In this document: in pieces, positions 26,269-45,275 of the stretch
Layout: each line of letters starts with the position of its first letter
Position numbering within the stretch: position 1 is the stretch's first letter
Assembly: GCF_016026235.1 (NCBI RefSeq)
Contig: NZ_CP065613.1
DNA: 64,000 bases
Strand: one strand, 5' to 3'
Origin: Escherichia coli
Lineage (GTDB): Bacteria > Pseudomonadota > Gammaproteobacteria > Enterobacterales > Enterobacteriaceae
Program-made: the position numbers and the translations under genes
Notes under the pieces: generated by a model
Seen by the model: only the letters and a program-made list of their open reading frames with translations
What the model was told of the DNA's origin: nothing
The model's database searches: none

Positions 26269-26281
26269 TTCACAGCCAAAA

Positions 26282-26312
26282 CGCCGGAGGTTTTTCTCTC
26301 CGGCGTTATTTC
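26282..26312. terminator. bidirectional terminator between convergent ydgA and uidC
   Basis: Hairpin cgccggag-gtttttct-ctccggcg followed by ttatttctt; lies between two convergent stop codons. Confidence 0.65.
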
Positions 26313-27616: not shown

Positions 27617-30849
<3,233 letters not shown>

Positions 30850-31100
30850 TTAACCAATTCTGTGTTGCACACAGTTATCTGTGAGAAACCCATGGAAGAG
30901 AAATGGAAATAAAAAGAACTGACACCGCGATCAAAAAACCAAAAACTGCAATACCCACAGCGTGATATTGATCGCATTAATCTTTAAAACGGCGTTGACA
31001 GAAGCCATAAAATAAGCAACCGAACGTTCGTTCGAGCATATTGGGAACGATAAACTCTCATGACATATGGCTACGGTGAATATTTTTGGGGGGAATTCTC

Positions 31101-32394
31101 CTGAGGGATCCCCAGAAAATTTAGTAAACCATTATCATATTGGTATACCGTTGCTGTAGAACTTTCAGCCCTGCGTCAAGTGACAGTGTGTTTAGTATGA
31201 GTGGAGAATGTCGAATCACATTCTCCGCCAGTTTTAATAACGAGATGACTCGCCTGTGCTTCACTGTATTTGCCTGATATTTATGATGTATCCCTTTGTT
31301 TTCCAGGCTGAAACCGCTTAACCACATAATGATACTGGCTAATGTTGCGATCAGACTCAATACCGTGACCCGCCCGGATGAATGACTGGCACCAAACCGT
31401 AGTCCAAATCCCCAGCGAGGATTTTTTTCATCCCTGAAATTTTGCTCAATTTGCATTCTACGGCTGTATAATTTCATTACCTGTTTTGGCGAGAACTCAG
31501 TACTGTTTGTGAAAATAAACCATGGTGATTTCCCGGCAGTACGAGCTTTAGCCGTCACCGATGGTCTGGTTGCTCTTTCCTTCGAGCGTTTAAATCTACG
31601 ACCTTTAGGCTTACTTTTATAAAGATAAAAATGCCCTTCATGTTGTGCATTTTTATCTCGACCCAGCAGGCCTTCACCTAAATAAATTGCTGTCGTTGAT
31701 GCTTTTGTGCCTGAGTCCGACACCTTTTCCCAGCCATTACCAACATTGTAATAATGATTGCCCAGTACCCGGCAAATATAGGTCCAGCCACGGGAGCGGA
31801 GCTGTTGGAACCATCGCCCCTGAAAACCGGCATCTGTAATAACAATGACATCAGTCCCGGGGGAAAAGCACTCAGCAAGCGATTCCAGAAAACGCTCATG
31901 TACATCTGCATTCGCTGTCTGTGATGATGGAACGACACAACTCATCAACGGTAAAGAACGCCCGTCACATGCCAGGCTTGCCCGCAAAAGCTGAAAACGA
32001 GAGGCATGATAAGCACTCCAGTCAATGAGTATCACAACACGAGACATTCCCCGCGTAATCTTTTGGGTAATTCGCTGAAAAATGGTGGAAACCTCATTTT
32101 GCAAATGTCGATTCCCCAACAGTCGATCCACCCGCTTTATTTTGTTTTTAACTGATGCCGTACCGGTTAAATGACGCCCGATACTGGTAAGTGTGAGGGA
32201 AGCGCCATTTATTACAGCATTAGTTGCGTCAATCAGTGATTTTTGACGGTAAAGATGCAAAGGGGCCAGTATGTTGTTAAGGAAATTTTGGCATAATGAA
32301 CGTGCAGGCATAGTGGTGATCTCCTTGAAATTGTTAGCACAATCAATTAGATCACATCTCACTATGCCTGTCTTGTTTTCTGGGGATTCCTCAG
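31101..32394 (-). mobile_element. IS10-like insertion sequence (IS4 family) inserted between uidR and uidA
   Basis: Left end CTGAGGGATCCCCAGAAAAT and the reverse complement of the right end CTGAGGAATCCCCAGAAAAC form an 18/20 imperfect inverted repeat resembling IS10 termini (CTGA-N3-ATCCCC); the element is flanked by a direct repeat GGGAATTCTC (31091-31100 and 32395-32404); it carries a single DDE transposase gene; length ~1294 bp. Confidence 0.85.
31121..32311 (-). CDS. IS4-family (IS10-group) DDE transposase
   Basis: ORF 31121..32362; alignment by eye to IS10 transposase shows conserved blocks KIKRVDRLLGNRH, IDWS (D), TDAGF (D) and YSRRMQIEQNFRDEK (Y-2-R-3-E-6-K signature); the likely start is the internal ATG (MPARS...) preceded by GGAG, giving 396 aa, which aligns with the IS10 Tnp start. 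Confidence 0.85.
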   Translation of the reverse strand: MPARSLCQNFLNNILAPLHLYRQKSLIDATNAVINGASLTLTSIGRHLTGTASVKNKIKRVDRLLGNRHLQNEVSTIFQRITQKITRGMSRVVILIDWSAYHASRFQLLRASLACDGRSLPLMSCVVPSSQTANADVHERFLESLAECFSPGTDVIVITDAGFQGRWFQQLRSRGWTYICRVLGNHYYNVGNGWEKVSDSGTKASTTAIYLGEGLLGRDKNAQHEGHFYLYKSKPKGRRFKRSKERATRPSVTAKARTAGKSPWFIFTNSTEFSPKQVMKLYSRRMQIEQNFRDEKNPRWGFGLRFGASHSSGRVTVLSLIATLASIIMWLSGFSLENKGIHHKYQANTVKHRRVISLLKLAENVIRHSPLILNTLSLDAGLKVLQQRYTNMIMVY

Positions 32395-32489
32395 GGGAAT
32401 TCTCCGATCCCGGCTAGATTGTATTTTGTACAGGGAAATTAAAGTATGAAACGCGGGCACAGTTATCACCAGCCCGCGAAATGAGAGGA

Positions 32490-33080
32490 TCAGGATGCGG
32501 TTAAGATACCGCCAATCATCGCGCGTAATCCCTGAGCAAACGACGCTTCACGCGCCAGATCTTCCGCTTCGATATCGGCCAGTACACCGTAGGTCAGATC
32601 CAGCAGTAAACGTGAAGTCATTGACGTGTTGATGTCTGGGCTTATCTCGCCTTTTTGCTGGGCATCACGCATCCGCTCGGCAACAAATTCAGTGATCGTC
32701 ATATGCTTATTTTTAAGCATGGCGGCGACCTGTGGGTTACGCATCCCTTCCGCCATAATTTCGACCACCAGCGCCCGTTGCCCAAAGGCTTCATGGGTGA
32801 GAGAGACAATAGACTCGACCATATAGTCAACAAAATGAATCCCTTCAATCGGTTCCCGGAAACGGGCCAGCGCCCTCTCCTGGTCCTGTAAGATAATCGC
32901 CTGAATCAAGGCTTCTTTGGAGATGAAATGGTGATAGAGCGTCCCGGGACTAATGGCGCAGGATTTACAGATGGCTTTCATCGAGGCACTGTGAAATCCA
33001 TTTTCTGAAAAAATCTCTCTGGCAGCATTGAGGATCCGGGTCCGTGTCGGTTGTGCTTCAGTCTGCATGTTATCCATCAT
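32490..33080 (-). CDS. uidR: TetR-family repressor of the glucuronide operon
   Basis: 196-aa ORF with N-terminal TetR HTH; upstream of and in the same orientation as uidA. Confidence 0.9.
   Translation of the reverse strand: MMDNMQTEAQPTRTRILNAAREIFSENGFHSASMKAICKSCAISPGTLYHHFISKEALIQAIILQDQERALARFREPIEGIHFVDYMVESIVSLTHEAFGQRALVVEIMAEGMRNPQVAAMLKNKHMTITEFVAERMRDAQQKGEISPDINTSMTSRLLLDLTYGVLADIEAEDLAREASFAQGLRAMIGGILTAS

Positions 33081-42386: not shown

Positions 42387-45275
<2,889 letters not shown>

Follow-up and report, generated by a model that had tools for sequence, protein, structure and literature searches.

The IS4 family of insertion sequences is defined by a single DDE transposase that carries the motif Y-2-R-3-E-6-K (YREK) around its catalytic glutamate (PMC2266710). 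Within this family, the IS10 subgroup as delimited by De Palmenaer et al. comprises elements of 1200-1350 bp that have CT ends, the YREK motif, and a 9-bp direct repeat (PMC2266710, Table 1). As the IS10 reference for our comparisons, we used the true IS10 from Tn10 on plasmid R27, which is annotated as ISVsa5 family in RefSeq. The hot-spot consensus of IS10 is NGCTNAGCN, and in IS10 and other insertion sequences, fold-back structures limit the translation of read-through transcripts. A consensus target for IS186, an IS4-family element of E. coli K-12, is said to have been reported by SaiSree et al. in 2001.

Here, we analyze a 64,000-nucleotide stretch of E. coli DNA, referred to as the window, in which the spacer between uidR and uidA is longer than that of K-12. 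We conclude, with a probability of approximately 95%, that the additional 1.3 kb in this spacer represents an intact copy of the named insertion sequence ISEc60.

The extra DNA between uidR and uidA

Positions 1-31101 of the window align to positions 1665093-1696373 of K-12 and positions 32394-64000 align to positions 1696362-1727866, with 98.4-98.9% identity. A preliminary description, made from the letters of the window, had considered everything outside of the uid locus to be collinear with K-12, and this view holds, since besides the extra DNA we find only two small indels across the window. In the ydgA-uidC spacer (window positions 26279-26307), approximately 181 bp of K-12 (1691399-1691552) are absent from the window, and a 29-nt repeat, possibly a repetitive extragenic element, borders the breakpoint. 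In the interior of rsxC (window positions 44612-45228), a tandem array of 96-bp repeats has one unit more in the window than in K-12. The uidA-uidR spacer is 390 bp long in K-12 and 1691 bp long in the window, which has thus gained 1301 bp net, in line with the excess of about 1.3 kb previously estimated. The features of the locus are as follows.

31101..32394, minus strand: complete copy of ISEc60, 1294 bp (from end to end, 100% identical at the nucleotide level to copies annotated as ISEc60)
31091..31100, no strand: left copy of the 10-bp target-site duplication, GGGAATTCTC (direct repeat, 1304-bp spacing)
32395..32404, no strand: right copy of the 10-bp target-site duplication, GGGAATTCTC
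31101..31119, plus strand: transposase-distal terminal inverted repeat, CTGAGGGATCCCCAGAAAA, with a GATC at 31107-31110 as in the IS10 inside end
32376..32394, minus strand: transposase-proximal terminal inverted repeat, CTGAGGAATCCCCAGAAAA on the minus strand
28987..30798, minus strand: uidA (beta-glucuronidase), intact, 603 aa; context, outside of the element (open reading frame and annotation of the locus in RMDEC364 and K-12)
32490..33080, minus strand: uidR (TetR-family repressor), intact, 196 aa; context, outside of the element (open reading frame and annotation)

The terminal inverted repeats are 19 bp each, they match at 18 of 19 positions, and both begin with CTGAGG. They are the sole two matches to these sequences in the 64-kb window, with a chance expectation of 0.01. 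The raw direct repeat that flanks the element is 12 nt long (GGGGAATTCTCC). It is reported at this length because the outer base on each side coincides with the terminal base of the element, and the true duplication is the 10-bp GGGAATTCTC. K-12 carries a single GGGGAATTCTCC at the junction, and the two spacers align from end to end once positions 31101-32404 are removed from the window. The empty site thus contains one copy of the target where the window has a duplication flanking ISEc60, as the preliminary description had anticipated in suggesting this comparison; its placement of an IS10-type element at 31101-32394, between uidR and uidA, is also borne out by the ends and by a 396-aa open reading frame.

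Since IS10 forms the composite transposon Tn10 and ISEc60 occurs as tandem pairs in some genomes, one might suppose that this element is not a solitary insertion sequence and instead bounds one side of a larger structure, either a composite transposon or a genomic island. However, the window holds only the one pair of ends and no second copy of the element, and both flanks are collinear with K-12 right up to the 10-bp duplication, which leaves the composite reading with next to no probability.

The identification as ISEc60 comes from comparisons with other genomes. The exact 396-aa protein is present at NCBI as WP_001111632.1, "MULTISPECIES: IS4-like element ISEc60 family transposase", which is found on 202 contigs, is listed in 512 blocks of a public-assembly collection, and is also annotated at the uid locus in RMDEC364. 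When the 1294 bp were compared by megablast to 5426 complete E. coli genomes, full-length copies with 100% identity were found in chromosomes and plasmids from CFSAN029787, RMDEC332, RMDEC364, and VL46, and the chromosome of FDAARGOS_943 contains 100%-identical ISEc60 in 38 places. All of these 100% copies are annotated "IS4-like element ISEc60 family transposase". A plasmid collection contains ISEc60 at 99.8-100% identity in E. coli and Shigella dysenteriae and at approximately 98-99.5% identity on many plasmids of Escherichia albertii. The intact copies that we fetched from other loci are all exactly 1294 bp long with the same ends.

ISfinder treats as isoforms those elements that share >95% nucleotide or >98% amino-acid identity with a reference. 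From the NCBI naming and the use of the name in the literature, we infer that our element corresponds to ISfinder's ISEc60 reference; the name appears, for instance, in a table of a MobileElementFinder-based survey (PMC11325645). Relative to the annotated copies of ISEc60, the element in the window has no detectable difference, and what is particular to a few strains is only where it is inserted, in the spacer between uidR and uidA.

These results bear directly on the suggestion in the preliminary description that the element may be a distinct or undescribed member of the IS10 group. An identity to the IS10 transposase of only 36%, together with the lack of any nucleotide alignment to IS10 at E <= 1e-3, would speak for such a member. 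Against this, RefSeq already applies the name ISEc60 to the exact protein and to 100%-identical elements in many genomes, and the name is in the literature, so we regard an undescribed member as extremely unlikely. The RefSeq-annotated 100% copies provide, in substance, the identity of >95% to a named insertion sequence that marks a known element. Because the exact protein and identical elements already bear the name ISEc60, what we have is a correct annotation, not a discovery: the element is real, already known, and an ordinary mobile element. For the preliminary description as a whole, its anatomy of the element and its IS10-type assignment stand, and only the suggestion of undescribed status has to be given up.

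The transposase and the relationship of ISEc60 to IS10

The element contains a single long open reading frame on its minus strand, which can be read as 413 aa from a GTG or as 396 aa from the ATG at 32311, with a stop at 31121. The 396-aa form is the RefSeq choice for the transposase at the uid locus of RMDEC364 (WP_001111632.1).

31121..32311, minus strand: transposase gene, 396 aa plus stop (open reading frame list; NF033591; PF01609; alignment to IS10; exact match to the ISEc60 family transposase)

The protein scores 360.5 bits against NCBIfam NF033591 (IS4 family transposase), for which the cutoff is 152, and Pfam PF01609 (DDE_Tnp_1) is on record for the product. Its motifs IDWS, TDAGF, and YSRRMQIEQNFRDEK are present at residues 96, 159, and 282, respectively. 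The last of these, at residues 282-296, is the IS4 family signature Y-2-R-3-E-6-K, consisting of Y282, R285, E289, and K296; the catalytic residues are D97, D160, and E289. A PDB sequence search with the transposase returned nothing meaningful at E <= 1 and no match to the Tn5/IS50 transposase.

We compared this transposase to that of IS10 and obtained 36% identity over 375 aa (E = 9e-75), within the 35-45% that had been guessed by eye. The preliminary description had also recognized the IS10 catalytic blocks in the protein, and here the triad and the YREK residues do align residue for residue: D97, D160, and E289, and Y282, R285, and K296, of ISEc60 pair with D97, D161, and E292, and Y285, R288, and K299, of IS10. 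The two elements are similar in size (1294 bp for ISEc60 and 1329 bp for IS10), and both have a single transposase gene that starts near one end. Their ends are likewise similar. The transposase-proximal end of ISEc60, CTGAGGAATCCCC, matches the IS10 outside end, CTGATGAATCCCC, at 12 of 13 positions, and the distal end, CTGAGGGATCCCC, matches the IS10 inside end, CTGAGAGATCCCC, at 12 of 13 positions, with the GATC common to both. Outside of the termini, no nucleotide similarity was detectable between ISEc60 and IS10 by blastn, which gave no alignment at E <= 1e-3. The level of protein identity and this blastn result rule out IS10 itself as the identity of the element.

With respect to the family as a whole, ISEc60 has a DDE_Tnp_1 transposase with YREK, terminal inverted repeats, and a target duplication of approximately 10 bp. 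With respect to the IS10 subgroup, its length of 1294 bp lies within 1200-1350 bp, its termini are 5'-CT, and it has YREK, whereas its direct repeat is 10 bp rather than the 9 bp typical of the subgroup, a value that is still within the range of the IS4 family. In pairwise comparisons, the transposase groups with IS10 (E = 9e-75) and not with other IS4 subgroups; the match to IS186 covers only 22 aa, and Tn5/IS50 gave no match in the PDB search. Judged from its sequence, ISEc60 belongs to the IS4 family, and its transposase and ends place it in the IS10 subgroup.

Two relatives of ISEc60 share its end sequences and carry no annotation beyond "IS4 family transposase". One, which we call L020, is on a plasmid of E. 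coli G6/7 (NZ_CP060062.1) and is 85% identical to ISEc60; the other, L021, is on the chromosome of E. coli TC24 (NZ_CP171637.1) and is 82% identical. Both are frameshifted, and the target of L020 is of the GGGG...CCCC kind, as in ISEc60. L020 and L021 may belong to unnamed sister elements.

Transposition and choice of target

The independent intact copies of ISEc60 at other loci are flanked by 10-bp duplications, one of which is ambiguous and could be 10 or 11 bp. Copies that are 100% identical are numerous at different loci, and each of them has a 10-bp duplication of its own, a pattern that indicates that the element has been recently active. The preliminary description had considered the copy in the window to be transposition-competent on account of its intact inverted repeats and DDE triad, and competence is plausible, the more so with the many identical copies elsewhere.

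By analogy with IS10, transposition could have proceeded as follows. ISEc60 would have entered the uidR-uidA spacer by ordinary DDE-transposase transposition, in which the 396-aa transposase would bind both of the 19-bp CT-ended inverted repeats and excise the element by a cut-and-paste reaction through hairpin intermediates, the chemistry being that of IS10. Joining to a target cut with a 10-bp stagger, followed by repair, would have produced the GGGAATTCTC duplication, and the choice of this site would follow from its agreement with the symmetric target preference G|G-N8-C|C described below.

The activity of the window copy is a prediction, and the relatives with 82-85% identity are frameshifted pseudogenes, so one could argue that what looks like an intact copy is a dead relic that no longer transposes. 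Several observations make this very unlikely: the open reading frame is intact with its full catalytic triad, both ends are intact, the sequence is identical to that of dozens of copies at different loci with their own 10-bp duplications, and the uid site is also occupied, in the opposite orientation, in another lineage. Taken as a whole, they point to recent activity of this exact sequence.

At the uid junction, ISEc60 is present in only 3 of the 5426 complete E. coli genomes, a rarity that points to a recent and polymorphic insertion. A further occupied site is in GCA_031665585.1 (JARKNL010000002.1 766730-770920), where an identical ISEc60 lies at the same uidR-uidA 10-bp target in the opposite orientation. 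Its 10-bp duplication is the same as that in the window, and on the uidA side its flank shares only 98.05% identity with the window. The opposite orientation and the divergence of this flank suggest an independent insertion at a hot spot.

We examined the targets at approximately 10 independent intact sites. The base that precedes the duplication and the first base of the duplication are almost always G, the last base of the duplication and the base that follows it are almost always C, and the center is AT-rich, giving the pattern G|G-N8-C|C, unlike the IS10 hot-spot consensus. Many of the sites are terminator-like hairpins with a GC stem, such as AAAAACCGGGGAATTATCCCCGGCTTTTTT. IS186 resembles ISEc60 in having a 10-bp duplication and in inserting at palindromes of a G-run and a C-run. 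In contrast, the IS186 transposase is essentially unrelated to that of ISEc60, with only a 22-aa local match around YREK (E = 0.017), and the ends of IS186 (CATAAGCG) differ from the CTGAGG of ISEc60.

The two elements have also been found at the same place. In one of the fetched loci (L015, positions 1418-2711), ISEc60 has dnaJ on one side and a hok-family gene on the other and sits in the dnaJ-hokC hairpin GGCGGGGATCACTCCCCGCC, and IS186A of K-12 (L018, 15387-16731) occupies the same hairpin downstream of dnaJ. The 10-bp duplications of these two insertions, GGGATCACTC for ISEc60 and GGATCACTCC for IS186A, are offset by 1 bp. On balance, we favor the reading that ISEc60, while belonging to the IS10 subgroup by its transposase and ends, has an IS186-like choice of target, in which G|G-N8-C|C sites, often in GC-stem terminator hairpins, are cut with a 10-bp rather than a 9-bp stagger. 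In the searchable literature, we found no description of a target preference for ISEc60, although ISfinder may record one.

Several copies of ISEc60 lack matching duplications, which indicates recombination between insertion sequences. In FDAARGOS_943 (NZ_CP065615.1 1104104-1111715), the uidR-side junction is identical to that in the window (99.9% over 4.6 kb), and the far side of the element is ompG instead of uidA, with no matching duplication. Here, ISEc60 has mediated a rearrangement, and the genome carries approximately 38 copies of the element. Among strains that have ISEc60, the number of copies per chromosome ranges from 1 to approximately 38. In GCA_031665585.1 (JARKNL010000002.1, approximately 1013937-1019431), two ISEc60 copies lie head to tail with exactly 10 bp between them (GGTAAATCCC) and with the outer flanks GGAAAATCCC, an arrangement that looks like a second insertion into the duplicated target of the first copy. 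In the CFSAN029787 chromosome, two ISEc60 copies are 1632 bp apart, each following an ibs toxin gene and each with the same duplication, GGGGAAACCC.

Possible regulation and significance at the uid locus

Two putative regulatory features can be read from the sequence, a leader hairpin and a pair of GATC sites. A stem-loop is predicted in the leader of the transposase mRNA, at the following position.

32305..32371, minus strand: predicted transposase-mRNA leader stem-loop (inverted repeats and RNA fold)

The leader folds with an energy of -37.9 kcal/mol (z = -5.3), and none of 200 shuffled sequences folds as well. In the predicted structure, both the Shine-Dalgarno sequence AAGGAGA and the ATG are base-paired to upstream sequence. 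The hairpin is mostly invariant in the two diverged relatives (82% and 85%), both of which are pseudogenes, with few changes, none of them compensatory. By analogy with the fold-back structures of other insertion sequences, we infer only that a leader hairpin burying the Shine-Dalgarno sequence and the ATG may control translation of the transposase.

GATC sites are present at 31107, in the distal inverted repeat, and at 32350, in the leader, and both are kept in the relatives with 82-85% identity. The sequence AAGACA-17-TCTAAT, which has an upstream TG and overlaps the GATC at 32350, was picked out by eye as a candidate promoter; it fails the scan criteria and is speculative. A scan for sigma-70 promoters and terminators gave no convincing transposase promoter in the leader. 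Control by Dam methylation, through the conserved GATC in the distal end and the one near the putative -10 element, is possible by analogy with IS10. An Rfam search of positions 30800-32700 at a permissive E-value yielded no RNA-OUT-like antisense RNA and only one chance-level match to a lncRNA (E = 0.92). Taken together, the Rfam result, the silent promoter scan, and the uninformative pseudogene relatives mean that IS10-style regulation of ISEc60 is only an analogy.

The transposase of ISEc60 is encoded in the same direction as uidR and uidA. One end of the element sits 302 bp upstream of the uidA start codon, and 85 bp separate the uidR stop codon from the right copy of the duplication downstream. 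The proximal control region of uidA is intact despite the insertion. Because the insertion leaves uidA, uidR, and the 302 bp of spacer next to uidA intact, it is probably neutral or nearly so.

At the uid locus, the window contains no non-K-12 DNA other than ISEc60, a catalogued insertion sequence. Because it lies upstream of uidA, on which beta-glucuronidase (GUS) assays rely, it is relevant to those who use GUS phenotypes in these strains, and its presence between uidR and uidA is a practical lineage marker. The element is abundant in S. dysenteriae and in enteroinvasive E. coli, for example CFSAN029787, an O96:H19 enteroinvasive strain with the plasmid pINV (PMC10470518). If its choice of target is indeed like that of IS186, a few intergenic sites, including the uidR-uidA spacer, would be recurrent hot spots of independent insertion in different lineages. 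The target preference and the repeated use of sites add modestly to the knowledge of target choice in the IS4 family.
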